64,000 nucleotides of DNA. It comes from a virus. Positions 1 through 12,381 of this stretch are shown here, one piece after another. The stretch lies in the UHGV virus genome UHGV-0073881, one strand, 5' to 3'. How positions within the stretch are numbered: position 1 is the stretch's first letter; each line of letters begins with the position of its first letter. The notes beneath the pieces were generated by a model. It saw only the letters and a program-made list of their open reading frames with translations, was not told the DNA's origin and ran no database searches. A program made the translations under genes and the position numbers.

Positions 1-148
1 CCATCCCCTCTTACTCCCCTTCCTCCCAAAAGTCAAGAGAAAAATTTGTAGAGAACTGAAAAATAATTCTTGACTAGTTTTCTGTTTTCTGTTAGTTGCG
101 TACACGCGTTTCATTCACAACTTTCCAAAAATATTTTTAAAAATTTTC

Positions 149-177
149 TTGACTCTATGAATCCAGTTTTGTAGTAT
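149..177 (+). promoter_or_regulatory. sigma70-like promoter, TTGACT-N17-TAGTAT
   Basis: -35 TTGACT 149-154, 17-nt spacer, -10 TAGTAT 172-177; upstream of first early ORF. Confidence 0.45.
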
Positions 178-230
178 TTGCATCAACGGGGCAAGCAAGC
201 CCCAACAATCCTAAACTGGAGAATCTAAAA

Positions 231-614
231 ATGAAAAAATACTACATGCCTAAATTCATCAAGAAAGAAAACTTTCGTAATGCTCTGGAAAAATCTATGG
301 GCGAACAATTCAAAGGAAAAATAATTGTTGTTCACGCTTACAATTTTAAGTATGATGTGAATGGAAACAAGATAAACCATTATACCGCTACAATGTTAGA
401 TGGTACACTATCAGGAGAAAAAGCCGTCATAAATGCACTTGCTGGACGTGGAAAAACTCTCATCCGTTGCGATAAACGCCGCTATCAGGGTAGTGCTTAT
501 GGTTATGAAGATGCAATCTATCATCTTGATAACATGGGTTACAATGTCGAAAAAGCTGGCGTATCTCAAATGATTGGCAGTGATGGCTATGTAACAATCT
601 TTGAAATTAACTAA
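231..614 (+). CDS. hypothetical early protein (127 aa)
   Basis: ORF track; ATG preceded by conserved leader CCTAAACTGGAGAATCTAAAA with GGAG RBS. Confidence 0.6.
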   Translation: MKKYYMPKFIKKENFRNALEKSMGEQFKGKIIVVHAYNFKYDVNGNKINHYTATMLDGTLSGEKAVINALAGRGKTLIRCDKRRYQGSAYGYEDAIYHLDNMGYNVEKAGVSQMIGSDGYVTIFEIN

Positions 615-616
615 TA

Positions 617-680
617 AAGTACTTTACATGGGGTTTATAGTTCGATAGGATAAGCCCCAGATAAAGAACTTTATCACTAA
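617..680 (+). repeat. conserved intergenic cassette type A (G4/C4 hairpin, promoter-like TTTACA-N17-TAGGAT)
   Basis: ACTTTACATGGGGTTTAT...ATAAGCCCCAGATAAAG; one of 7 near-identical copies. Confidence 0.6.
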
Positions 681-700
681 CCTAAACTGGAGTTTTAAAA

Positions 701-958
701 ATGGCTACCATTAAAAACATCGTAATTACTGCAAAATCCCGTGATGACGCTCGCGCAACTGCTAAAAAATTAAATGGTAAAGTAGTTGACAACGGAAAAA
801 GTTCTGCTGTAAGATGGGGCGTAAAGACAGACAAGGAATTAACCTTGAAACATAGCTCTAAAAACCTGTTTAAAGGTGTACAGACTATCGGTAAAACAAA
901 TGTATTTACAAAACAAGGTTATAAAATGCACTTGGCATTAACTGACAATTTAATCTAA
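701..958 (+). CDS. hypothetical early protein (85 aa)
   Basis: ORF track; conserved leader and RBS. Confidence 0.6.
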   Translation: MATIKNIVITAKSRDDARATAKKLNGKVVDNGKSSAVRWGVKTDKELTLKHSSKNLFKGVQTIGKTNVFTKQGYKMHLALTDNLI

Positions 959-1025
959 AAAGTACTTTACATGGGGTTTATAAATTGCTAGTATAAGCCC
1001 CAGATAAAGAGCTTTACCACTAAAC
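958..1025 (+). repeat. conserved intergenic cassette type A (hairpin, TTTACA-N17-TAGTAT)
   Basis: same cassette as 617-680; stem GGGGTTTATA/TATAAGCCCC. Confidence 0.6.
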
Positions 1026-1049
1026 AATCCTAAACTGGAGAATCTAAAA

Positions 1050-1562
1050 ATGAAATTTGTTGAAAGTACCTTTGAAGTTCAAAAAGAAAAATTCACCATT
1101 ATCTATGAGGCAATGAATATTTGTGAGCCTTCCCATTGTGTGGATAACTGGCAATTTACTGATGAGCATAAAGGCGGGGTTACAATCAAAGTTAAGAATG
1201 CAGAACGTAACAGCTACAAATATGCAATTCCCACACATTACCCGCTTTCACAACTTACCAGTGACTACGCAAAACAGGGAAGGGATAACCCGTCATTGGA
1301 AGCTTACAAGAGCTTACAGGATGAGCTAGAAAGGGATTTACAGGCTAATAACTACATCTTGTATGCCTCAGTAGTTGACGCTGAAGGCAACACGGTTTTA
1401 AATAGTTTTTCCCTTGCGTATGGTTTCGATTGGTGCTATCTTGACGGGGAAGATTTAGATTCACGCTTAAAAGAGGAAGTCAGTAATTCAGGTGCTGAAG
1501 AGGAAGTTTTAGAGCGTTTGGAAGATTTAAAAGACAGTGTGATGAATATCTTTAACATTTAA
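1050..1562 (+). CDS. hypothetical early protein (170 aa)
   Basis: ORF track; conserved leader and RBS. Confidence 0.6.
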   Translation: MKFVESTFEVQKEKFTIIYEAMNICEPSHCVDNWQFTDEHKGGVTIKVKNAERNSYKYAIPTHYPLSQLTSDYAKQGRDNPSLEAYKSLQDELERDLQANNYILYASVVDAEGNTVLNSFSLAYGFDWCYLDGEDLDSRLKEEVSNSGAEEEVLERLEDLKDSVMNIFNI

Positions 1563-1625
1563 AAGTACTTTACATGGGGTTATCAGGCTGATAAGATAGC
1601 CCCAGATAAAGAGCTTTACCCAATA
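1562..1625 (+). repeat. conserved intergenic cassette type A (hairpin, TTTACA-N17-TAAGAT)
   Basis: same cassette; stem GGGGTTATC/GATAGCCCC. Confidence 0.6.
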
Positions 1626-1646
1626 ACCTAAACTGGAGATTCTAAA

Positions 1647-1943
1647 ATGTTTATCGCTGCAAATGTACGTTCCAAATTGAGCAAGCTTTTACAAGATATC
1701 AAATTTGTAGAATCTATGCGCCGCACTCATGAAGTAACGGAGTGGTATCATGGGAAAATAAATGGTAAAGAAGTTGTTATTTGTATTTGGAATTTTTGTA
1801 AAGAATACAAAAAGCCGTTGCTTCAGGTGGATATCTATGATAATGCAAATAAAAATTCTGTTAAGTCTACAAGGGATATGATAGATTCTTTTGAGATTAG
1901 CCACACTGGCAGACTATTTCACAAAGGAAAATCATCATGCTAA
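1647..1943 (+). CDS. hypothetical early protein (98 aa)
   Basis: ORF track; conserved leader. Confidence 0.55.
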   Translation: MFIAANVRSKLSKLLQDIKFVESMRRTHEVTEWYHGKINGKEVVICIWNFCKEYKKPLLQVDIYDNANKNSVKSTRDMIDSFEISHTGRLFHKGKSSC

Positions 1944-2260
1944 TTTCTGGAGTTGCCTTACTCATTGCTATTTTAGCACTGTATAAATCATGTAAAGCAC
2001 ATCATGCGGCAAGTGATGCAATCACAAGACAAATCAATAATAAACTTGTGACGTCCTTTCTAGAGCGTTTAAACGTGGAACAACTGAAGCGCTTAGAGAT
2101 GGGCTTCAGATTCAAGGCTGATACGTATCAGGTTAGCGACATTCTAAGCGGTGATTTTCAATTGATTGATGATTATAACGCTTTATTAAATGCTTTAAAT
2201 ATCAGTGACTTGAAAGATTATCATGCTGTTATTGTTCACGAAATAAGCAAACGAAAATAA
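1937..2260 (+). CDS. hypothetical protein with N-terminal hydrophobic helix (107 aa)
   Basis: ORF track; ATG 1937 overlaps upstream stop; N-terminus LISGVALLIAILALY. Confidence 0.55.
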   Translation: MLISGVALLIAILALYKSCKAHHAASDAITRQINNKLVTSFLERLNVEQLKRLEMGFRFKADTYQVSDILSGDFQLIDDYNALLNALNISDLKDYHAVIVHEISKRK

Positions 2261-2353
2261 ATTACTAAAAAGGGCTTGCAACTGATAGCAAAAACAAGTA
2301 AATTACTAATCAGACGGGCAAACAAGCCCACTTCCTAAACTGGAGAATCTAAA

Positions 2354-2626
2354 ATGTATACTACCAACAATAGCCGAACTTTAAATGTAACTTTAAAGCA
2401 CTATGTAGAGGGTGTATTAAACTTTGAAGACTTGCAAGCAGAACAGCACTTGTTAGGTTGGCAAGTAGCAGGATTACAAAAAACTGCCACCGGATATGGG
2501 AAGAAAATCCCTACATCGTGGAAAGTGCGCTATTTAGGCAAGTTACGTAGAATTTATCAAGATGTTTATAGCAATAGTGGTGTAAGTTACATTATTGTTA
2601 ACGGTAAGAAGTTGTATTTAATCTAA
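2354..2626 (+). CDS. hypothetical early protein (90 aa)
   Basis: ORF track; conserved leader. Confidence 0.55.
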   Translation: MYTTNNSRTLNVTLKHYVEGVLNFEDLQAEQHLLGWQVAGLQKTATGYGKKIPTSWKVRYLGKLRRIYQDVYSNSGVSYIIVNGKKLYLI

Positions 2627-2629
2627 TAA

Positions 2630-2693
2630 ATTGCTTTACATGGGGTTATCAGGCTGATAAGATAGCCCCAGATAAAGAGATTTACCCAATAAC
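2630..2693 (+). repeat. conserved intergenic cassette type A
   Basis: near-identical to 1562-1625. Confidence 0.6.
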
Positions 2694-2712
2694 CTAAACT
2701 GGAGATTCTAAA

Positions 2713-3114
2713 ATGACTGCTAATCGTGATATCGCTATTCTGAAAGCACGATTGACTGTAAATCGTATTAATTCTATCACATCCACAGCACCCGATGAGA
2801 CATTGCATAACATTATCGGTAAAATTCAAGGTGTAATTTTAGACGTAGAAAACATCAAAAATTCACTTGCAAACGTTGCAAATGGTGCTACACTTGACGG
2901 CGCACAATATGAAATGGCTGATATGTTAGCCAAATCAAAAGTAATGAATAAAGAACTTGATTTGAAAATGTTTCGATTTGCTGTTAAAGTGTGGCTAGCT
3001 ATTGAGTTCGATGCTAATTTTGCAATTGCTGATTTCTTTGCTACATGGTTACAACGTAACCTGTCAAAACAAGACTTTGAAGATATCTGCGACACAATTT
3101 ACGCAGAACTTTAA
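2713..3114 (+). CDS. hypothetical early protein (133 aa)
   Basis: ORF track; conserved leader. Confidence 0.6.
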   Translation: MTANRDIAILKARLTVNRINSITSTAPDETLHNIIGKIQGVILDVENIKNSLANVANGATLDGAQYEMADMLAKSKVMNKELDLKMFRFAVKVWLAIEFDANFAIADFFATWLQRNLSKQDFEDICDTIYAEL

Positions 3115-3217
3115 AAAACGTTTGACACTAATTTTTAGATAGATTAAAGTACTAATCAGACGGGTATGCAATAACCTCCCCAGTAAGTGAAGTCCTTAAA
3201 CTAGGAGATTCTAAAAA

Positions 3218-3421
3218 ATGGCTATTATTAACGGCTTAACCATCGAAAAAACACACATCAAAGACATTAAAGTTGGGGATACAGTTCTTTTTCACGGCGT
3301 AGAAAAAACTGTCACCGCAAAAGATATCAAAGAAGATTCTTTCATGGGTGTGACTCTATTCGGCGACTCTTATCGCTTAGGATACCTTGCAGTTTTAAAA
3401 GTTATCAAAAATAACCGATAA
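3218..3421 (+). CDS. hypothetical early protein (67 aa)
   Basis: ORF track; leader variant CTTAAACTAGGAGATTCTAAAAAATG. Confidence 0.55.
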   Translation: MAIINGLTIEKTHIKDIKVGDTVLFHGVEKTVTAKDIKEDSFMGVTLFGDSYRLGYLAVLKVIKNNR

Positions 3422-3487
3422 AGTACTTTACAGGGGGCTTAAAAGTTGATACCTTAAGCCCCAGATAAAGAGCTTTACCAAATCAAT
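3421..3487 (+). repeat. conserved intergenic cassette type A (hairpin GGGGCTTAA/TTAAGCCCC)
   Basis: same flanking arms AGTACTTTACA ... CCCCAGATAAAGAGCTTTACC. Confidence 0.55.
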
Positions 3488-3507
3488 CCTAAACTGGAGA
3501 TTCTAAA

Positions 3508-4065
3508 ATGAAATGCTTTCACGGTACTACTCAAGAAAACTTTTTAAACCTCATCAATGGCGGCGAAAAACCTACAGGTGCTTGGAATTGCTCTGATATG
3601 GATGGTTATTTTTACGTATACCCTGTCAGTAAGTTCTGCGACGTAGAAGAGATGGACGAAGAACAAATCACAAATGAAGGGTTGCGCAATGCTCTTGATA
3701 GTGCTACAATCACAGCAGCTATCCAAATGAAAACTCAAAATATTGTTATCTTAGAACTTGAAATTCCAGAAGATGAGTTACAAGATGATTGGTCTTGTGA
3801 GAATATGAGTGACATCGCAAGCTTTACAGAGCACTTTGATAAAGATTGGGTTAAAAAGGTTTATACAACTGAATTCAATGCAATGTATTCACCGTTTTTT
3901 GTTCCTAACTTACAAAATCGTAATTTGGGATATATTGATGAAAAGCTTGAAGAGGTTGCAACATTCATCCAAAATGCCGATGATAGCTCAATCATCTATT
4001 GCAATATGCTGGACGCAATGCAAGAAAGCTTAACAGAAAGCGTTTTAAGCGACGTTTTAGCGTAA
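3508..4065 (+). CDS. hypothetical acidic early protein (185 aa)
   Basis: ORF track; conserved leader. Confidence 0.6.
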   Translation: MKCFHGTTQENFLNLINGGEKPTGAWNCSDMDGYFYVYPVSKFCDVEEMDEEQITNEGLRNALDSATITAAIQMKTQNIVILELEIPEDELQDDWSCENMSDIASFTEHFDKDWVKKVYTTEFNAMYSPFFVPNLQNRNLGYIDEKLEEVATFIQNADDSSIIYCNMLDAMQESLTESVLSDVLA

Positions 4066-4128
4066 ACCATACAATCACACTAACGACATTCAAAAGCCCC
4101 GCATAGGGGCTTACAAGGGGATTAAATC

Positions 4129-4365
4129 ATGTTAACAACAATCTATCTCATGCTTGCCGTTTGCTCTGGTGCAAATAATTGTCATTATGGCATTATGGAA
4201 TCTTTCGAAGGCACTAAACAAAATGCAGTAGAGGCTTGCAATATTGCTAGACAGGACTACCCGAAATCGTCTATAATGGACTGTTATGTCTCACAAGGTG
4301 AAGACGAAAGCACAGAATACTACGAAAACGTTAATGAAGATGAATTTTTAGAGATTTACAAATAA
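4129..4365 (+). CDS. hypothetical small protein with N-terminal signal-like segment (78 aa)
   Basis: ORF track; N-terminus MLTTIYLMLAVCSG; RBS AAGGGGA. Confidence 0.5.
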   Translation: MLTTIYLMLAVCSGANNCHYGIMESFEGTKQNAVEACNIARQDYPKSSIMDCYVSQGEDESTEYYENVNEDEFLEIYK

Positions 4366-4423
4366 AGTACTTTACATGGGGCTTAAAAGCTTGATACCAT
4401 AAGCCCCAGATAAAGAGCTTTCC
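4366..4423 (+). repeat. conserved intergenic cassette type A
   Basis: AGTACTTTACATGGGGCTTAAAAGCTTGATACCATAAGCCCCAGATAAAGAGC. Confidence 0.55.
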
Positions 4424-4441
4424 TAAACTGGAGTTTTCACA

Positions 4442-4588
4442 ATGTCAAATATAGTTGAAATGGTTTTTAATAATCCGGTATTCTCAGAGATGATTTTCTC
4501 GTTTATCATGATGTTACTTGTTAAAACCATGAAAAAAGCCGAAAAATTACACTCAAAGAAAAAAGCTATTGCAAACCGTTTTAAGTAA
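4442..4588 (+). CDS. hypothetical small membrane protein (about 49 aa)
   Basis: ATG 4442 behind leader CCTAAACTGGAGTTTTCACA; hydrophobic translation; not in ORF track. Confidence 0.35.
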   Translation: MSNIVEMVFNNPVFSEMIFSFIMMLLVKTMKKAEKLHSKKKAIANRFK

Positions 4589-4635
4589 AGATATAGTATC
4601 AATCAAGCCCACTTCCTAAACTGGAGAATCTAAAA

Positions 4636-4977
4636 ATGGCATACGTAACAATTATCACTGATAAAGAAAACTCTTCTTGGTCCACACAAGTAAGCGATAA
4701 AATGTCGCCTATGCAATGCCTCAAATACTTTGAGCAATGGAACAGGGGGGAAGATGTAAGCCCTTTCCAAGTAATGCAGGTTGTACATGTTGACAATGAC
4801 GGCAACAAAACTACCCTTAACACTGAATACTATGCTACACGTTTTGAGACTCGCAAAGAAGCTATGCGGGAACTAAGAGAAAAGGGCTATAGTCACATTG
4901 CCGCTTTGATTTGGTCTGATTTGCTTAAAAAACAAGCATTAACCTACGTCAAGCCTGAAAAAATCTTTATAAACTAA
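4636..4977 (+). CDS. hypothetical early protein (113 aa)
   Basis: ORF track; conserved leader. Confidence 0.6.
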   Translation: MAYVTIITDKENSSWSTQVSDKMSPMQCLKYFEQWNRGEDVSPFQVMQVVHVDNDGNKTTLNTEYYATRFETRKEAMRELREKGYSHIAALIWSDLLKKQALTYVKPEKIFIN

Positions 4978-5199
4978 TCAACAACTTACAAAATTCTTTG
5001 AAAAAACTGTTGACATTGCCCCTTGACAATAGTACATTTGTTCGAGGGGGTTTATCTAAAGGGATTCACTTAAAAGATTCTTTATAGATAAGCGAAAAAG
5101 TACTTGCAATCAGATTTCAAAACAAGTAAATTACTAAGCAACGGGGAGGGGATGACCTTCCCCACTAAGTAAAGTCCTTAAACTAGGAGATTCTAAAAA

Positions 5200-5448
5200 A
5201 TGTATACTAAAACACAACTCAAAAGCATGGTAAACAGTGGTTTAATGAATGATGTTTATAAGGATTGCAGACGTTACGGGGAAATAAGAGAGATAATTGA
5301 TTATGAGTATACTCACACAATAAATTTCAAAACTAATGAAAAACGGACTGACTTTATAACTGTAGTGATTATTGAATACAAAAATTTATTGTGGACTTTT
5401 GAGCTGGTGAAAGGTGAGTGTATAGAAATCGAATACAAGGCCGCTTAA
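5200..5448 (+). CDS. hypothetical early protein (82 aa)
   Basis: ORF track; leader variant with AGGAG. Confidence 0.55.
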   Translation: MYTKTQLKSMVNSGLMNDVYKDCRRYGEIREIIDYEYTHTINFKTNEKRTDFITVVIIEYKNLLWTFELVKGECIEIEYKAA

Positions 5449-5500
5449 AAGTACTTTATAGGGGGATTAAAAGCTGACACCTTAAGCCCCCAAACACCTT
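5448..5500 (+). repeat. conserved intergenic cassette type A (degenerate copy)
   Basis: AAGTACTTTATAGGGGGATTAAAAGCTGACACCTTAAGCCCCC. Confidence 0.45.
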
Positions 5501-5504
5501 TACA

Positions 5505-5537
5505 GCCCCTTTTGTCTCTCTCATAGGGGCTTTTTTT
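5505..5537 (+). terminator. rho-independent terminator ending the early block
   Basis: stem GCCCCT/AGGGGC, 14-nt loop, then TTTTTTT. Confidence 0.6.
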
Positions 5538-7100
5538 ACGTCTATGTAATAGCCCCTCTCAAATGCTTATATAAACCCTTCCCCTGTCCTTTCCAGAATC
5601 TTACAAGACCTTAAAAAGCAATAACTCTATAGCTTACTCTATAACCTCTTATCAAATCAACTTAAATATAAGCCCATAACCCGAAAGGGAAGGGCAATCC
5701 CTTAAACGCTCTATAACGCTCTATAACGGCTTATCAACTCAACTTAACCAATCATATTAACCCACTCTTAAAAGCCCTCTATAGAGCTTCATAGACCCTT
5801 AAAAGAATCTTATAAGGGGTGTAAGCTTTATCATCTCGTTAGTATCTTGTGAATAGTTAAACAGGGGGCTTGTTATTAGCTTAAAAGTATGTTATAGGGG
5901 CTTAAAAGTAGCTATAAAGTTACGTAAAAGTATCGTAAATGCTAGCCCCCTTAACATTTCTTTAACAATTTCTTAACAATCCCTACATAGTTATGCTTAT
6001 TAGAGACTTGTTAGCACCTTGTTAAATCTCTGTTAAGACTATGTTACAACCTTGTTAGATTCTTTGGAGTCCCTATATAAGCCCCTGTAAAGGGCTATAA
6101 AGAGCTATACAGTCAGTTGGGCTATAGTTACTATGGAGAACCTTAGAAATGGCTGTATAGAGCTATACAGGGCTTTTAAGAGGGCTTTTAAGAGAATCAC
6201 TGAGAAAGATAGGGAACTATAGACCAAGAGATAGTGACATGTTAACAGCTTGTTAAAAAGGTTAAACACTTGTTAGGAACTTGTTAATAATCTTAACAAA
6301 ATAACTCTTAACATTTAACTACTCAACTCTTGTTAGCAATCTGTTAAGACTCTGTAAAGACTATGCAACAACTGTTAAGCACTTGTTACAATCTTGTTAG
6401 CTCTGTTAAGGGTCTATTAAGAACTCTGAAGAGATGTTAAGAGGATGTAGTAACTGTTAAGAAATTGTTAATGATATTTTAAGATTTTGCAAAGGGTATG
6501 TTACAGGGATGTTAAGGGCTACCAAGCAGATATACACCCTAGACAGATATTTTTCAGTTCCTTCAAAGAACCTAAATAAAACACTTGACAGTCTATTTTA
6601 TAAAAATTTTATAGAACTGAATAACTATCTATACACTATCTAGTATAAAACAGGTAATAACAGGCTTATAAGATACCTTGTTAGTACCGTGTTAGACCTT
6701 GTAGGATAAGCCTTAGAAGGGAATACCTGTTTAGTGCTATATAACAGTCTATATAGAGGCTTAGTAAACCCTAGTGAACCATCTATAGAGAGTCACATAG
6801 TTAACATAGAGATTAAGATGGGTATAGGAGCTTCTAAGGGGTTGTTAAGATGTTAGGAAGGGGGTTGTATAGGTGGTTAAGAAGGCTTGTTAGAGAGCTT
6901 GTTAGAGGGCTATTTAGAAGGGGCTATACAGTTCACTATATCGAATCACTAGAAAGAGACTAAGAGGCTATATAGATACTATATAATACTATATAGAGAG
7001 TATGCTTAGATAGGTTGTTTAGAAGGGCTAGATATTTTATCACATATCATGGTGACCCAAGATGAACGTAGTGAATCCAAATTTTATAAAATTATAAATT
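5538..7100. repeat. ORF-free repeat-dense region (short TTGTTA / CTGTTAAG / CTTGTTAG and CTATACAG / CTATATAG repeats)
   Basis: no ORF of 60 aa or more on either strand; dozens of short direct and palindromic repeats, densest 5930-6480 and 6650-7000. Confidence 0.6.
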
Positions 7101-7114
7101 TCGTAAATTTTACT

Positions 7115-7165
7115 CAATAAAAAGCCCCTATGAGATAGATTCTATCGAATCCATATTAAGGGGCT
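7115..7165 (-). terminator. terminator-like hairpin ending the leftward block
   Basis: minus strand: stem AGCCCCT...AGGGGCT followed by TTTTATT; long loop. Confidence 0.4.
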
Positions 7166-7417
7166 GTAAAGTTCTTAGCAAAGGTTATCTATGATAGCCT
7201 GAATAGCTGGAATAGTTGTGTGATAAAAATGAGTGTTTCCATTATGAGCTTCTCTCTCTTGTAACATGATAGAGTGACCCTTTACAGGGAAGCATTGAAT
7301 GTGATAACGATTCCCGTTAAATATTGCTCCACCACCTGAACAGAAACCTTCCAAGACTGACTTAGCAAGGAACTCATTTTCGCTACCTCTAAAGAGGGGC
7401 TGTTACACCCCTTTAAA

Positions 7418-7654
7418 TCACTCTTCAGTCTTCTTCTCATCAGACTTTTTAGTTTTCTTATCAACTTTCTTAGGCTTCTCTTCAACCTTAGCTTCTGGTT
7501 CATTTTGAGTTGCCTGAATAGCAATGTCCAGAAGTTTTGCCAAGTCTGATTTAATCACCGTAACAGGTTGCTCATTGTAGTAGCTCTTGTCAAGGTGCTC
7601 TTTCAGTTCATTAAGAGAGCTAAAGCCGAATGGCTGGATAGGTGTCTTAATCAT
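7418..7654 (-). CDS. hypothetical protein with K/E-rich C-terminus (78 aa)
   Basis: ORF track; preferred over overlapping 7282-7524. Confidence 0.5.
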   Translation of the reverse strand: MIKTPIQPFGFSSLNELKEHLDKSYYNEQPVTVIKSDLAKLLDIAIQATQNEPEAKVEEKPKKVDKKTKKSDEKKTEE

Positions 7655-7728
7655 TCATTACTCCTTATAAGCATCTTCCAAAATGTGTTTATTAATCATC
7701 TCTGCAATTGCATAACGAATACAGATAA

Positions 7729-8235
7729 CTAGAATTTTAGGTTGCATTCTTTACTCACTTCTTCAAATTTCTGTTCATGTTCCAAGGCTTTCTTCCTGTG
7801 GAACCTCATTCTTAAGTAGGCTGCAATCATACCACCTACAGGAAGCACATACAAGAACCAAATTTCTTCGATTTTGTTTATTGACTGCTTAATAGTCATT
7901 TCTTGACCGTAAAAAGCTGTTATAGCCACTGCACAGACCATGATAAAGAACATTGCCAAGAATACAATCATTCCTGCATAGGCTCTTACGTGCTGTTCTG
8001 ATAAAGTCTGCTTGTTCTTTGCATCAATCAGTCCGTTGTAGTCATTTGAAAAGTCCCTGTAGAAAGCTTTCAAGTATTCTCGGCTATAACCTTCAAAACA
8101 ACCTGTGCCAAACCAATCATCCCCTCCAAAGTGGGAAATTACACCCGTTTCACCGTTTGCTTTAACAATCTTGATAGAAACATGGTGCTTAGATTTTGTA
8201 TGGGAAATCTGGTCTCTTTCTTCTAACATAATCAT
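7729..8235 (-). CDS. hypothetical membrane protein (168 aa)
   Basis: ORF track; ATG start; two hydrophobic segments in C-terminal half. Confidence 0.6.
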   Translation of the reverse strand: MIMLEERDQISHTKSKHHVSIKIVKANGETGVISHFGGDDWFGTGCFEGYSREYLKAFYRDFSNDYNGLIDAKNKQTLSEQHVRAYAGMIVFLAMFFIMVCAVAITAFYGQEMTIKQSINKIEEIWFLYVLPVGGMIAAYLRMRFHRKKALEHEQKFEEVSKECNLKF

Positions 8236-8453
8236 TGTTTAATCCTCTCTAAACGTGCATTCCACTCAATGTCAATCATTTTCTTAAAAGTTTTTCCCCT
8301 TGGGGTTACATTTGGAATGCCTTCATCTGCTGTGCAATAGAGAATATCCCCTCTTGCTGCTTTACCGTAGCACTGTTTGATTTTCTTGGCTCTCCTGTAT
8401 GACTCTGCTGCTGCAATCATCCAGTACTCACCTAAAGTTGTAAACTTTTTCAT
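8232..8453 (-). CDS. hypothetical protein (73 aa)
   Basis: ORF track; overlapping start-stop with neighbours. Confidence 0.5.
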   Translation of the reverse strand: MKKFTTLGEYWMIAAAESYRRAKKIKQCYGKAARGDILYCTADEGIPNVTPRGKTFKKMIDIEWNARLERIKQ

Positions 8454-9151
8454 TCGTTCACCATTGCGTTGTAAAACTGTCTTTGAATTTCTTCAGCAAT
8501 TTGATGAGGTGTCAAACCAGCTTTCAGCATCATTCTCACGGTGTATTCAATATTTCCGTGGTTTACTACTCTGTCAGCGATAAAGGCAGCCTCTTTAAAC
8601 TCTTCAGCTTTCTTCTTAGCGTCTTCACATGCCCCTGTCAAGAGGGAAGAAAACTTTTTATGTGGTGGTAACCAATGATGGTGTGGATTGTTGGAAGTAA
8701 ATGCTTTGAAGAACTCTCCAACATGGTCAACAACTCTTGAATCTCCACCTTTTACATTCAGTTCTGTGGTGTAACGGTTTTCATGCTTTGGTAAATCTTC
8801 AATCTGAAGAATCTTATGAGTAGGCTCAATAGTCACGTCTACAGAACGAATCTTTGGAGTTGTCTGAGATTCTTCGTGACGAATGAACAGAATGTCTTTA
8901 AACTGCCCTGTGAACTGACCACTTGAGTACTCATCAGTAGAGTAGATGATACCTGCGTGTAACACTCCGAGAGTACCTTGTGGGTTATGTCGATAATCTT
9001 TAAACATCAGTTTCTTAAGTGGTCTGAAAAAGATACGCCCAGATTCTGCTACGTGCGTAATCTCAGCCTGAGTAGAATCTTGACCATTGTAACGGTTTCC
9101 TAAAGAAACCTGAATAGTAATCTTGTCACCAGCTTTTGGTTTAGTGTTCAT
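8450..9151 (-). CDS. hypothetical protein (about 233 aa)
   Basis: ORF track 8450-9166; start moved to ATG with GAGGA RBS (MNTKPK). Confidence 0.6.
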   Translation of the reverse strand: MNTKPKAGDKITIQVSLGNRYNGQDSTQAEITHVAESGRIFFRPLKKLMFKDYRHNPQGTLGVLHAGIIYSTDEYSSGQFTGQFKDILFIRHEESQTTPKIRSVDVTIEPTHKILQIEDLPKHENRYTTELNVKGGDSRVVDHVGEFFKAFTSNNPHHHWLPPHKKFSSLLTGACEDAKKKAEEFKEAAFIADRVVNHGNIEYTVRMMLKAGLTPHQIAEEIQRQFYNAMVNE

Positions 9152-9224
9152 TTTCTTTCCTCGCATATGAAAAAGGGAACTACCTTTCGATAGTTCCCAT
9201 GTTATACGTTTTTATGTATCACTG

Positions 9225-9827
9225 TCAAGTGTGTTTTTTAGGCAGTAATGCACTTCTTTTATCCCTGACATTATCAAGAATACCAATAAAGGTATCTTTA
9301 GCACCTTTCCAAGGGCTGAAGTCTGGGATGTACTCTCGAATTCCTTCGATAACAACCTTCAAAGCATTGTTCTTCATCCACCAATCAGGACTTGAAGCAG
9401 ACATGACATAGAACTGTTTATCGTCTGTCAAAATAGGTTCTTCAGTCATCGGTGAGATGTAAGTTGTAACAACTGCACCACTATTCATGTAGTAAGTACG
9501 TTTTGTAACCTTACTCAATGTTTTGTGCAGGTCTGCAAACAGTGTCACAACATCTTTGTGGTCAATGTCTTTTTCAAGGTCGATACGATACTTCAATAGA
9601 GCCTCATCAACCTCTTTATCAGTAAACTTGAAGTACTGCACCTCATCAATAAGGCAAACAGACACGTTGTTTACGTTAAAGGTTTGTTTAACAACCTTTG
9701 CAGGTGACGTTATAGTTGGCTGAAAAGCTGCAATCAGACCTTCAATGTTTCCGTAGAAACTTACAAGCTGAACTTGAGGCTGTTGAATGTACTCATCAGG
9801 GGCATTTTTATTTTCTATTTCTGACAT
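9225..9827 (-). CDS. hypothetical protein (200 aa)
   Basis: ORF track; ATG start. Confidence 0.6.
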   Translation of the reverse strand: MSEIENKNAPDEYIQQPQVQLVSFYGNIEGLIAAFQPTITSPAKVVKQTFNVNNVSVCLIDEVQYFKFTDKEVDEALLKYRIDLEKDIDHKDVVTLFADLHKTLSKVTKRTYYMNSGAVVTTYISPMTEEPILTDDKQFYVMSASSPDWWMKNNALKVVIEGIREYIPDFSPWKGAKDTFIGILDNVRDKRSALLPKKHT

Positions 9828-9828
9828 G

Positions 9829-10173
9829 TTACAATTTCCTTACAAGATATTTCTTAAGTGGGGTGTTAGGCTTTTCGAAGACCTCCAGAGAATCTATCTT
9901 AATATGTTCACCTCTCATACCTGTGGCTTGATAGATGTAATATTCAAGCATACCAACCTGTTTAGCTGGTAAGTCATGTTTTACAAACACAACAACTTTA
10001 TCTCTGGATTTATAGATGATTGTACCATCTTTGAAACTTAGTTTCTTAGGTCTCTCATAATCACCTAGTTCACACATAATGAAGAGTTTTGACAGATAGT
10101 TGTCAATTTGTGAAGTCAAAGCTTCTGGGATATCTGCAAAACTCTTGTAAACGACCACATGCAACTTAATCAT
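9829..10173 (-). CDS. hypothetical protein
   Basis: ORF track 9829-10218; start moved to internal Met (MIKLHVV) to reduce overlap. Confidence 0.45.
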   Translation of the reverse strand: MIKLHVVVYKSFADIPEALTSQIDNYLSKLFIMCELGDYERPKKLSFKDGTIIYKSRDKVVVFVKHDLPAKQVGMLEYYIYQATGMRGEHIKIDSLEVFEKPNTPLKKYLVRKL

Positions 10174-10459
10174 CGCGGTATTCCCTGACGAAGAAGTAGT
10201 TAACCTTGTTGCCACCAACTAAAAGGTTAAAGCAGGTGTTTTCAAACTTGACGTTTGCTGCATCGTATGTGTTATACGGGTCTGCAACCTGCTCTGTTGA
10301 GACTTTCTTATTTTGGGGATTCAAGAGGCCACCATAAAGTTTCTTGATAGCCTCTGAAACAACTTCCCAAATCACCTCATCAGTAATTTCTTCGAACAGG
10401 TCAAATTCACGTTCAAGACGAAAGTCACAAATCGGGAATACAACCTGTATCTTACTCAT
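10166..10459 (-). CDS. hypothetical acidic protein (97 aa)
   Basis: ORF track. Confidence 0.5.
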   Translation of the reverse strand: MSKIQVVFPICDFRLEREFDLFEEITDEVIWEVVSEAIKKLYGGLLNPQNKKVSTEQVADPYNTYDAANVKFENTCFNLLVGGNKVNYFFVREYRDD

Positions 10460-10839
10460 TAGCGGATTACCTGAGATACCTGAATAGCTTCTGTTACAGA
10501 AATGTCACCGACCTTTTCTTCAGTGATAAAAGTGAAGGTAACAAGAGATTCTTCAACTTTTTCTTCTTCAAGTGGTACTCCGTTAAGCTCATCAAAGATT
10601 GCTTGTGTAGTCCAATCTTCCTGACCATCTGGGTAATGAATGGCATACAGTGGGAATCCTGTAGCATACCAACCAAATACTGGACAGCCATCTTCATCGT
10701 CACGGAATCTACGTAGAGTTGAACCTGAGCCTGTGAAACGAAGACTTAGATTACCATTGCATTGGAAAATTGTTGCCTCAGCAAGACCTGCGTTGTCATG
10801 AGCATATGTATCAACTTTTACATGAATCTCTTTATTCAT
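10459..10839 (-). CDS. hypothetical protein (about 126 aa)
   Basis: ORF track 10459-10938; start moved to internal ATG (MNKEIHV) next to upstream stop. Confidence 0.5.
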   Translation of the reverse strand: MNKEIHVKVDTYAHDNAGLAEATIFQCNGNLSLRFTGSGSTLRRFRDDEDGCPVFGWYATGFPLYAIHYPDGQEDWTTQAIFDELNGVPLEEEKVEESLVTFTFITEEKVGDISVTEAIQVSQVIR

Positions 10840-11230
10840 AATAACCTCTCTCAGCTTTCTCAATTTTATCCAGAAGTTTGATGCACTGGTTGTTGTGATA
10901 AGTTGCCTCACGGTTGTGCATTGCTTTCTGTCTCTCAAGTAGAGCTTTATAGTAACCTGCTAACTGCTCTCTTGTCAAGGGTTGCTCTGAAATAATATCT
11001 AAAGAACTTTCTCCAAGTGAGCAAAACATACCGTCATCGTTGACTTCATAGAGTTCATTTGTAAAGAAACCCTTGTTAGCCATCGTGATAGGTGAACGAT
11101 TGATAACCTCAATGATAAACTTGGTAACAACCTCCTCACCATAAGTGATTAGCTTGCTTCCATAGATACGTACCTTCATACCACTTCTCGTGTACTTGAA
11201 AGTCCCAACATCACTAGCCCAAATCTTCAT
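10832..11230 (-). CDS. hypothetical protein (132 aa)
   Basis: ORF track; RBS before ATG. Confidence 0.55.
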   Translation of the reverse strand: MKIWASDVGTFKYTRSGMKVRIYGSKLITYGEEVVTKFIIEVINRSPITMANKGFFTNELYEVNDDGMFCSLGESSLDIISEQPLTREQLAGYYKALLERQKAMHNREATYHNNQCIKLLDKIEKAERGYYE

Positions 11231-11281
11231 AACTTTTCTCCATAGAAATAAAAAAGGCTCCCGAAGGAGCCTCTGAATATA

Positions 11282-11746
11282 TTACTTTGGGTATACAGCG
11301 TCAAGATAAATTTTTGCTTCCATTCTACGTCTGTTTTTCAGACCCTTAGAAGGTACTTTCTTACCTTTGACTGTAATCTTGTTCCACCATTGCATAGCTT
11401 CTGCGCATCCAACTTTATCTCCAGCATTATGACGCTTGATAAATGTCGAGGCTTGCATAGCTGCAATACCAATGTTATAAGTCTCAATGACAAGAGCATC
11501 AAACTCATTCTGTGTAGTAGGAACTTTAATCGCTCTTGCTACAGCACCAATGTAGTTTTCAACATCTGCCAGAAGATACTGTTCAGCTTGTTCAGCAGTA
11601 ATCTTCATACCCATAGTTACTGGTTTTCCGTGGATACGGATTGTACCGTATCCAATTGTAGGAATTCCAGCAGAGTCTGGATATGCTTCTAGCTCAAGCC
11701 CTTCAAAGAACTTGATAGCATCAAGACCTTTCTGTGAGAGCCTCAT
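11282..11746 (-). CDS. endolysin, GH24 lysozyme family (T4 e / lambda R-like muramidase)
   Basis: N-terminal FEGLELEAYPDSAGIPTIGYG matches the GH24 lysozyme catalytic motif (Glu ... TIGYG); 154 aa. Confidence 0.85.
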   Translation of the reverse strand: MRLSQKGLDAIKFFEGLELEAYPDSAGIPTIGYGTIRIHGKPVTMGMKITAEQAEQYLLADVENYIGAVARAIKVPTTQNEFDALVIETYNIGIAAMQASTFIKRHNAGDKVGCAEAMQWWNKITVKGKKVPSKGLKNRRRMEAKIYLDAVYPK

Positions 11747-12381
11747 TATTCACCTCCAACTGCATTAACGACAACTGTTGCGGTATTTGAAGTAACACTT
11801 CCACCAGCACCAGTTACAACACATGTGTAAGCTCCTGCATCATCAGCAGTTGTTGCATTTTCTTTAGTATACGTTGCAGATGTAGCAGAAGGGATGTTCA
11901 CATTGTCTTTCTTCCACTGATAGCCAGTAGCATTTGAGGCAACAACCTGTAGAGTCAGAGTATCACCTTCATTAACCGTCTGGTCAGTTGGTTGTGTAGT
12001 AATTGTTGGAGGAACTACAGCATCTTTCAACTTAGCATTCAGCATCGAGAAAGGTTTAACTCTTGCAAGCCATTCATAGTAAATGGTGTCAACATCTTTA
12101 CCATTGATAATTGCATATTGCAAATCCATGAAGAAGTCAGCAGTCCTCATCTGTGAGCCAATTGCATATAGCAACTCTTCATTAAATGGAACGTCATAGT
12201 CTGGAACGTATGTGAAGTTTGTCACTTCAGCAATATCAGCTTCAGGCCAAGGTGAACTGTATGTGAGTGGCAATACAGCAGCTTGGTAAGTTCTGAAGTC
12301 ATATCTTTTACCAGCTTTAACATTCGCAATAAAACCTTTCACGAATTCTTTAAAGTCTGGATATGTTTTTGCTTTAATCAT
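11746..12381 (-). CDS. hypothetical protein with C-terminal Ig-like domain; paralog of the next gene
   Basis: C-terminus TITTQPTDQTVNEGDTLTLQV...YTCVVTGAGGSVTSNTATVVV is Ig/I-set-like; N-terminal 120 aa resembles 12378-12746. Confidence 0.6.
   Translation of the reverse strand: MIKAKTYPDFKEFVKGFIANVKAGKRYDFRTYQAAVLPLTYSSPWPEADIAEVTNFTYVPDYDVPFNEELLYAIGSQMRTADFFMDLQYAIINGKDVDTIYYEWLARVKPFSMLNAKLKDAVVPPTITTQPTDQTVNEGDTLTLQVVASNATGYQWKKDNVNIPSATSATYTKENATTADDAGAYTCVVTGAGGSVTSNTATVVVNAVGGE

Follow-up and report, generated by a model that had tools for sequence, protein, structure and literature searches.

Promoter-early stem-loops (PeSLs) are known from the T4-like phages RB49/phi1, T4/PST and KVP40/nt-1. 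Each combines a sigma-70 early promoter, preceded by an A/T-rich tract, with a stem-loop that is often made of poly-G and poly-C. They lie between ORFans in hyperplastic regions and act as crossover points, the crossovers mapping to the stretch from the -10 box to the ATG (PMC2839356; PMC4122927). Recombination between neighbouring PeSLs yields mini-circles. Here we analyse repeats in a 64,000-nucleotide stretch of the virus genome UHGV-0073881 (the window), where a block of small genes at 231-5448 carries intergenic cassettes of two types, A and B, that end in a shared translation leader. Judged from their sequence, these cassettes are best read as the Ounavirinae counterpart of the PeSLs, as every PeSL feature recognizable at that level is present in them. 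We put a probability of about 0.8 on the repeats being modular expression cassettes, with a host sigma-70 promoter, a hairpin and a standard ribosome-binding site (RBS) leader, for small accessory early genes, and serving also as points of gene exchange.

The likeness to the PeSLs is extensive. Intergenic cassettes of ~80-100 bp sit in arrays of small open reading frames (ORFs) with unknown function, and a predicted sigma-70-like promoter with ~17-nt spacing is preceded by an A/T-rich tract. The type A hairpin reaches across the spacer, the -10 box and the predicted start (+1), with covariation in its stem, and the 3' end of the repeat is formed by the Shine-Dalgarno (SD) sequence and the ATG, in 171 copies here including 11 of 11 in the window. 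Indels, replacements and displacements between close relatives fall at the cassettes. The differences are that the host phages belong to the Ounavirinae and not to the T4-like Straboviridae, with unrelated sequences, which is a matter of taxonomic scope and not of mechanism; that there is a second architecture, type B, with the hairpin in the 5' untranslated region (5'UTR) at +3/+4, downstream of the -10 box; that there is a leader core of 12-14 nt, sharply bounded, ultra-conserved and able to pair with the SD; and that the cassette hairpins have no U-tract.

In this region the genome paper of Felix O1 has only direct repeats, of 57 bp and 39 bp, and calls no promoters (PMC3185647), and the record of phage wV8 contains nine unexplained direct-repeat families, DR_1 to DR_9. 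Neither the term PeSL, which turned up in three papers on other phages, nor a promoter-cassette interpretation was found for Felix O1-like phages in the literature searched, and within that literature PeSL-type cassettes have not previously been reported for Ounavirinae, the repeats being known only as uninterpreted direct repeats. The cassettes would thus explain repeats that the Felix O1 genome paper left open, and would extend the PeSL principle, linkers that both express and shuffle accessory genes, beyond the T4-like phages. As virulent myoviruses of two unrelated subfamilies have them, such linkers may be a means by which lytic phages in general maintain an exchangeable set of early genes for host takeover or anti-defence. 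Felix O1-like phages serve in typing, biocontrol and therapy directed at Salmonella and E. coli; in them the cassettes would mark natural, transcriptionally self-sufficient insertion points and could supply early expression parts for engineering, and the predicted transcript starts are testable coordinates.

The phage of the window is Felix O1-like and belongs to the subfamily Ounavirinae. In a megablast search 259 phage records match window positions 1-6000, all of them Felix O1-like, and identity is highest, at ~85%, for Shigella phage ESh22 and Citrobacter phage KMM4; over most of the block the database search gave no record above 85%. The closest records belong to Mooglevirus, Felixounavirus and Kolesnikvirus, all Ounavirinae. 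The block holds 13 plus-strand ORFs of 48-185 aa each and has its counterpart in ORF15-23 of Felix O1. None of the 13 ORFs reaches the Pfam threshold, and their matches in PHROGs are to families of unknown function only.

We propose that each intergenic region, ~76-103 nt long, contains four elements in a fixed order, namely an A/T-rich tract, a promoter, a hairpin built of a G-run and a C-run, and a 5'UTR. The promoter would be read by the host sigma-70 polymerase and has a -35 box TTTACA (type A) or TTGACA, TTGCAA or TTGACT (type B), a 17-nt spacer and a -10 box TAnnnT, often with TGn. The 5'UTR would end in (U)CC(U)UAAACU(A)GGAG, followed by 8-10 mostly A-rich nucleotides (7-10 across relatives) and the ATG. 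Such a sigma-70-like promoter lies 32-61 nt upstream of the ATG in 11 of the 11 leader-bearing genes, with upstream tracts of 65-95% A+T. Of the roles that the original prediction had considered for the repeats, a promoter plus hairpin is thus the one that the -35 box, the 17-nt spacer and the -10 box bear out for the cassettes.

Type A was first seen as a 60-nt cassette in seven intergenic regions. Six copies are indeed complete (at about 618-675, 961-1018, 1564-1620, 2630-2686, 3422-3479 and 4366-4424), but the seventh, at 5443-5492, is decayed and has no leader. The motif AGTACTTTACATGGGG has 8 matches in the window against 0.61 expected, and CCCCAGATAAAGAGCTTTACC has 6 against 0.00. Further copies came from the homologous regions of phages allfine, ESh22, Silverhawkium, UAB_Phi87 and Felix O1, and others from Felix-like contigs. 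The latter were picked out by searching viral contigs with a 14-mer, which gave mostly chance single matches, and only loci with several matches on contigs of ~82-90 kb were used. The 83 copies obtained reduce to 41 usable distinct promoter cores. In 40 of these the distance from TTTACA to the -10 hexamer is 17 nt, and in one it is 18 nt. The hexamer is always TAnnnT, with positions 1, 2 and 6 invariant while positions 3-5 carry only 0.16-0.49 bit, and there is a T at -15 in 29/42 cores and a G at -14 in 34/42. Because TAnnnT is conserved in this way at a fixed 17-nt spacing, we read the type A cassette as a sigma-70 promoter. What had been described as a variable loop between the G4 and C4 stems is therefore not one: it holds the conserved -10 hexamer, 17 nt from the -35 box. 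A generic promoter scan marks TTTACA-17-TAxxxT at 623, 966, 1569, 2635 and 4371.

The type A hairpins of the window have folding energies of -13 to -15 kcal/mol (z -2.8 to -4.2). Each of stem pairs 1-9 forms in at least 38 of the 41 distinct hairpins, and pairing collapses past pair 9. Two-sided, compensatory changes are seen at pairs 7-9, and the variable pairs 5-9 are paired in 97.6% of cases, compared with 12-44% in slid registers and 74% with shuffled partners; none of 1000 shuffles reaches the observed value. By this covariation the G4/C4 stem is under selection. At pair 5, 20 of the 41 distinct copies have T-G, which is a wobble in the RNA of the sense strand only and a mismatch on the other strand, and this points to a role of the hairpin in transcripts that read through from upstream. 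The predicted type A start is the A after CCCC, at the 3' foot of the stem; as the hairpin spans the spacer, the -10 box and this start, it would exist as RNA only in read-through from upstream promoters. There are two stem registers, GGGGCTTA/TAAGCCCC and GGGGTTATC/GATAGCCCC, and the 17-nt spacer is kept in both. In distant Erwinia phages the design persists although the stems are others (GGTG/CACC and GGGGTTA/TAACCCC), with the -10 box in the loop, and relatives also show hairpins placed in the spacer only or in the loop only.

Two isolated observations concern type A. At 7388-7560 of contig IMGVR_UViG_2974556886_000001 (L017) two type A cassettes follow each other without an intervening gene; the first has its leader and ATG fused directly to GCTTTACA of the second, an arrangement that resembles an emptied module. 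In the complete genome of Felix O1 (L005) the sole other TTKACA..GGGG..CCCC promoter-hairpin pattern is at 2298, upstream of rIIB and outside the homologous block.

In type B the order is TTGnnn, 17 nt, TAnnnT, the 10-nt ACTMATCAAC and the hairpin. Nearly all of 88 distinct copies have TTGnnn-17-TAnnnT, and in 67 of ~80 folding copies the hairpin begins exactly 10 nt past the -10 box. The hairpin sequences differ (GGGGAGGGAATGACCTTCCCC, GGGGCAAGCAAGCCCC, GGGAGGTAATAACCTCCC, GGGAACAACTCCC and others) with the pairing kept. As transcription is predicted to start ~7-8 nt after the -10 box, the type B stem-loop would lie 3-4 nt from the 5' end of the transcript. Some stem-loops at the 5' terminus stabilise mRNA, as in the ompA 5'UTR, and the type B hairpin may by its position be an element of this kind: it lies ~3-4 nt from the predicted 5' end, it is G+C-rich and its pairing is kept despite sequence change. 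It differs from the ompA case in that the start is a predicted one and that two copies in the window have lost or degraded the hairpin. A second type of cassette had been noted at four places in the window, and it is present at all four, but a fifth member at 149-209 had been left uncounted, and of the others one is now without its hairpin (4592-4613) and another keeps it only in decayed form (3160-3181).

The cassette promoters all point in one direction, and the block is closed by an intrinsic terminator at 5504-5537 (plus strand; stem AGCCCCU...AGGGGCU followed by U7, -12.3 kcal/mol), the sole terminator-like site on the plus strand in 1-7000, which the scan places at 5514-5537, with a counterpart in terminator t23 of Felix O1 (PMC3185647). 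With one direction of promoters and one closing terminator, nested early transcripts with a common 3' end are to be expected.

The hairpins might instead insulate each cassette from transcription coming from upstream, as terminators or attenuators, the role proposed for the PeSLs of RB49/phi1, where in vivo terminator activity has been reported for one stem-loop, that of PeSL211/210 (PMC2839356). The cassette hairpins are stable, G+C-rich and intergenic, and the wobble pairs point to a function in sense-strand RNA. On the other hand, the terminator scan found no U-tract after any type A or type B hairpin, and the U-tract of an intrinsic terminator occurs only at 5504-5537, where the block ends; the missing U-tracts argue against simple termination by the cassette hairpins. 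The type B hairpins are moreover downstream of their own promoter, where termination would defeat it. We regard such an insulating function as unlikely. Within the modular-cassette reading, the type A hairpin would most likely act on the message coming from upstream, as a 3' barrier, a processing signal or an attenuator, and the type B hairpin may be a 5'-terminal stabilising stem-loop of its own transcript.

The eleven early ORFs that were said to share a leader do so. The form CCTAAACTGGAG is present in nine exact copies (210, 681, 1029, 1627, 2334, 2693, 3488, 4422 and 4615) and the variant CCTTAAACTAGGAG in two (3194 and 5176); each is followed after 8-10 nt by an ATG (231, 701, 1050, 1647, 2354, 2713, 3218, 3508, 4442, 4636 and 5200), and GGAG stands 8-10 nt before the ATG in 11 of the 11. 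Outside the block the 64 kb window has no exact copy, so the motif is not equally frequent at random positions; three further matches have 2 mismatches, lie on the minus strand and are at chance level. The complete Felix O1 genome has 8 copies, all in the homologous block at 8401-12035, and in each genome the leader is confined to one block of 8-18 genes. Among the 171 copies, 97 have the form CCTAAACTGGAG, 56 the form CCTTAAACTAGGAG and 16 the form CCTAAATTGGAG; both main forms are found with both cassette types, and the spacer to the ATG is 7-10 nt. A leader with at most 1 mismatch is present in 81 of the 83 copies that were ascertained by the type A motif alone. With both cassette types a core of 12-14 nt is near-invariant and sharply bounded, and the adjoining linker and the SD-ATG spacer have low information.

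The leader can also fold. The mini-hairpin (U)CC-UAAACU-GG(A) is the minimum-energy fold of isolated leaders at -2.7 kcal/mol, or -3.6 kcal/mol for the CCTTAAACTAGGAG form, and it is present in 11/11 predicted UTRs, where the first two G of the SD (G1, G2) have a probability of being unpaired of at most 0.22. The CCTTAAACTAGGAG form equals the CCTAAACTGGAG form with two coupled single-base insertions 5 nt apart (CCT[T]AAACT[A]GGAG), which add exactly one U-A pair to the CC..GG mini-hairpin and leave the loop unchanged, and no intermediate with a single insertion was found across the loci searched. Three Kolesnikvirus phages keep the CC(U)(U)..(A)(A)GG pairing in 32 of 32 distinct leaders, with varying loops (UAAAC, AUA, ACA, AAA and others) and mostly AGGAA in place of GGAG. 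Any CC partner is found at only 8 of the 58 other gene starts of the window. This is suggestive of a weak element that sequesters the SD, or of an operator.

On one reading, a dedicated post-transcriptional regulator uses the leader core as its operator: a protein of the phage or of the host would repress translation of the early mRNAs or cut them together, as RegA or RegB do in T4, and this would add to the promoter-cassette reading. The near-invariant core between low-information flanks, its confinement to one block and the rarity of SD-covering pairs at other gene starts would all suit such a regulator, as would a variant that adds one pair to the same loop with no intermediates. T4 likewise has a short motif shared by the ribosome-binding sites of many early genes, and GGAG is the RegB cleavage motif there (record note). 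The motif in the window is however longer, with CCUAAACU upstream, and searches of the window and of complete Felix O1 with the two T4 proteins as queries (tblastn, phmmer --max) detected no homologue of either, the best E being at least 0.3, a result that leaves room for remote or analogous proteins. A stem of 2-4 bp is marginal, insertions 5 nt apart would travel together in any conversion tract, and a strong standard RBS combined with homogenisation could give the same picture from copies that are not independent. We find an operator doubtful. Its most specific form, in which a mini stem-loop that sequesters the SD, (U)CC(U)-loop-(A)GG(A), conserved with different loops in genera of the Ounavirinae, is the common operator of a putative regulator unrelated to RegA/RegB and switches 8-18 early accessory genes off (or on) together, seems to us a shade more doubtful still, and it was not preferred since the stems are short and the copies related.

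On the view that the leader is a shared recognition site and not a generic RBS the evidence points both ways. Its bounded core, its confinement and the SD-covering mini-hairpin, rare elsewhere, agree with it, but neither RegA/RegB nor any special complementarity to 16S rRNA was found. Much of the identity can also be explained by recombination and gene conversion between cassettes, which the original prediction had not considered.

Two candidate mechanisms for the leader were tried. Pairing with 16S rRNA of the epsilon type was rejected: CCUAAACU and CCUUAAACUA complement E. coli rrsH over 5-6 nt only, no better than shuffled 8-mers, and the T7 epsilon positive control recovers its 9-nt 16S site at 458. 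The other was a RegB- or RegA-like regulator encoded by the phage, which homology does not support in the window or in complete Felix O1.

RNase III substrates typically have about two helical turns. The early region of T7 resembles the present array in having hairpins between early genes, and gene 10 with its epsilon in having a conserved element just upstream of the SD; by that analogy the hairpins could be sites where RNase III or another RNase cuts out monocistronic messages. They are regularly placed between co-directional early genes that have no terminators between them, and they show signs of pairing in sense-strand RNA. With 8-11 bp, however, the stems fall well short of the two turns of a typical RNase III substrate, and the 16S complementarity of 5-6 nt compares with the 9-nt target of epsilon. 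Processing would also be unnecessary for separate messages when each gene has its own promoter, and Rfam 15 gave no match at E up to 1 on either strand of window 1-8000. We consider RNase processing improbable.

Hairpin promoters are used by the virion RNA polymerase of phage N4, and this precedent together with the very high identity of the non-coding repeats could suggest promoters for a phage-specific polymerase or sigma factor, or else selfish mobile repeats with no regulatory role. Either is very hard to maintain, as the conserved positions are exactly those of sigma-70 with 17-nt spacing, Felix O1 has no gene for an RNA polymerase (PMC3185647), and all copies have one orientation and a fixed distance before the ATG, unlike scattered selfish repeats.

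Gene-order maps of ten genomes differ only by whole units of cassette plus gene. Gene N is present or absent at the front of the block, genes A and B are absent in two of the ten, H, U or nothing stands between genes G and I, gene K occurs in two, and the gene sets after L vary. The indel junctions lie in the leader. The cassette before gene I is of type A when H or U precedes and of type B when both are absent, and in ESh22 the type B cassette that elsewhere precedes H or U is joined directly to gene I, with the junction in the leader. One and the same promoter and hairpin stand before gene A in the window but before gene N in another phage. Displacement is seen as well: gene M has moved with its own cassette, the order being I-J-M-L in wV8 and I-J-K-L-M in the window, so that cassette B5 precedes the homologous gene at another position in wV8. 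The cassettes of a genome also evolve in concert. Identical hairpins are found in 17 of 125 pairs from different genes of the same genome, compared with 12 of 175 pairs from the same gene in different genomes; one hairpin variant private to a single genome occupies four positions there, and the cassette before gene G has different stem classes in different phages. Altogether the cassettes occur across the subfamily, at 1,519 places in 288 phage records, including Erwinia phages with other stem sequences; in the window and in the complete Felix O1 genome cassettes and leaders are found nowhere but in this block.

Because the cassettes are near-identical, they would act as crossover points, through which units of cassette plus gene are gained, lost, replaced and moved, with homogenisation of the cassettes within a genome. 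Lambdoid morons are autonomously transcribed accessory genes that are inserted between other genes, exchanged horizontally and carry their own terminator. The genes of the block resemble them in being self-transcribed, as predicted, and horizontally exchanged, but morons have no shared repeated linker, whereas here the cassettes are near-identical and one terminator is common to all. Homologues of gene M (5200-5448, 82 aa) are limited to 23 phage records, among them phages that carry the labels Hafnia, Serratia, Enterobacter and Listeria; the position of the gene in the block varies within the Ounavirinae, and it behaves as a mobile accessory gene.

Several points weigh against the modular-cassette reading. 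The evidence is all at sequence level: comparison shows the anatomy of the cassettes, their pattern of conservation, the stem covariation, the restriction to one block, the indel junctions, the displaced modules and the concerted evolution, and from these promoter activity, transcript starts, hairpin roles and any regulatory role of the leader are inferred. No mapped 5' or 3' transcript ends for any Ounavirinae phage were found in the literature searched. The generic promoter scan is not enriched for the region (26 found against 22.3 expected from shuffles), so the case for promoters rests on position-specific conservation. Some copies have weak -10 boxes (TACCTT, TACCAT), and the T at -7 is also a base of the stem, so that this position is constrained twice. 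The stem covariation boils down to a few haplotypes, and since the copies are homologous and exchange sequence the counts are not independent events. Recombination alone leaves the sharp edges of leader conservation unexplained, and as the type A hairpins have no U-tract the terminator role of the RB49 PeSL stem-loop is not simply transferable. The timing of the Felix O1 orthologues in reverse transcription PCR is mixed too. The block had been called early, which agrees with ORFs 16, 20, 21 and 22, maximal at 5 min, but not with ORFs 17, 19 and 23, maximal at 25 min (PMC3185647).

All cassettes of the window are on the plus strand. Among those of type A, A1 (618-700, gene 701) has the -35 box TTTACA at 623-628 and the -10 box TAGGAT at 646-651 within the hairpin 629-659 (-13.0 kcal/mol, z -4.24), followed by the box CCCCAGATAAAGAACTTTATC at 655-675 and the leader at 681-692. 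In A2 (961-1049, gene 1050) TTTACA is at 966-971, TGn and the -10 box TAGTAT at 989-994, the hairpin at 972-1002 (-13.9 kcal/mol, z -3.30), the box at 998-1018 and the leader at 1029-1040. A3 (1564-1646, gene 1647) has TTTACA at 1569-1574, TGn with TAAGAT at 1592-1597, a hairpin in the second stem register at 1575-1604 (-15.2 kcal/mol, z -3.62), the box at 1600-1620 and the leader at 1627-1638. A4 (2630-2712, gene 2713) repeats A3 over 99 nt with 92% identity; its TTTACA is at 2635-2640, TAAGAT at 2658-2663, the hairpin, identical to that of A3, at 2641-2670, the box at 2666-2686 and the leader at 2693-2704. For A5 (3422-3507, gene 3508) the positions are 3427-3432 for TTTACA, 3450-3455 for TACCTT with TGn, 3434-3462 for the hairpin (-14.4 kcal/mol, z -2.77), 3459-3479 for the box and 3488-3499 for the leader. 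A6 (4366-4441, gene 4442) has TTTACA at 4371-4376, an 18-nt spacer, TGn with TACCAT at 4395-4400, a hairpin at 4377-4408 (-13.4 kcal/mol, z -2.98) and a shortened box fused to the leader at 4422-4433. The decayed seventh copy (5443-5492) follows the last gene; it reads TTTATA, has lost the -10 box, keeps a hairpin at 5461-5491 (-10.7 kcal/mol, z -1.32) and has neither the 3' box nor the leader.

The first type B cassette, B1 (149-230, gene 231), has an UP-like A/T tract, the -35 box TTGACT at 149-154, a 17-nt spacer, the -10 box TAGTAT at 172-177 and a predicted start at ~184; its hairpin GGGGCAAGCAAGCCCC is at 188-203 (-10.9 kcal/mol, z -3.15) and the leader CCTAAACTGGAG at 210-221, with the spacer AATCTAAAA. 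B2 (2276-2353, gene 2354) has TTGCAA at 2276-2281, TAAATT at 2299-2304, ACTAATCAGAC, the hairpin GGGCAAACAAGCCC at 2316-2329 (-7.6 kcal/mol, z -4.50) and the leader at 2334-2345; a duplicate TAAATT box lies upstream, and 2299-2304 was chosen by homology to relatives. B3 (3122-3217, gene 3218) has TTGACA at 3122-3127, TAAAGT at 3145-3150, the decayed hairpin at 3160-3181, which is no better than shuffles (z +0.67), and the leader CCTTAAACTAGGAG at 3194-3207. The -35 box TTGCAA of B4 (4569-4635, gene 4636) at 4569-4574 is inside the end of the upstream ORF; TATAGT is at 4592-4597, the hairpin is lost with a remnant CAAGCCCACT at 4604-4613, and the leader is at 4615-4626. B5 (5104-5199, gene 5200) has TTGCAA at 5104-5109, TAAATT at 5127-5132, ACTAAGCAAC, the hairpin GGGGAGGGGATGACCTTCCCC at 5143-5163 (-16.6 kcal/mol, z -4.28) and the leader variant at 5176-5189. 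The predicted starts of the eleven genes are, approximately, 184, 659, 1002, 1604, 2312, 2670, 3158, 3463, 4408, 4604 and 5140.

A cassette is missing before two ORFs of the block. ORF 1937 overlaps with the end of its upstream neighbour, and gene J (ORF 4129) is preceded, at 4093-4128, by the hairpin GCCCCGCATAGGGGC and an AAGGGG SD. The wV8 record has a Rho-independent terminator annotated at the place homologous to this hairpin, and the array may in some relatives be two transcription units, split before gene J. The 126-nt spacer from gene L to cassette B5 (4978-5103) is conserved in relatives (L001-L005) and has a good promoter-like site, TTGACA-17-TACATT, at 5010-5038, as well as an inverted repeat with imperfect arms, TTATCTAAAG...CTTTATAGATAA; a small RNA gene or a regulatory site may lie here. 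Upstream of the first cassette, positions 1-148 are conserved among relatives. The stretch begins rich in pyrimidines (CCATCCCCTCTTACTCCCCTTCCTCCC), has another TTGACT at 70-75, and includes an A/T tract, AAAAATATTTTTAAAAATTTT, whose conservation is strong and which resembles an UP element for the first promoter of the block.

Right after the terminator of the block, ~2 kb (5540-7700) have no long ORFs and are dense in phased repeats of 10-12 bp (CTTGTTA / TGTTAAG, CTCTATAACG; 19 Tandem Repeats Finder (TRF) rows). The homologous stretch has only 'repeat_region' features in phage allfine and Felix O1 has a 1.6 kb gap at this place. The stretch may hold an origin of replication, a site for packaging or the genome terminus. 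In Felix O1 (L005) the region of the block is flanked by ORF3 (3582-4130) and ORF13 (7130-7915), homologues of T4 vs.1 and tk.4, which adjoin regB in T4; a regB homologue itself is not present in Felix O1.

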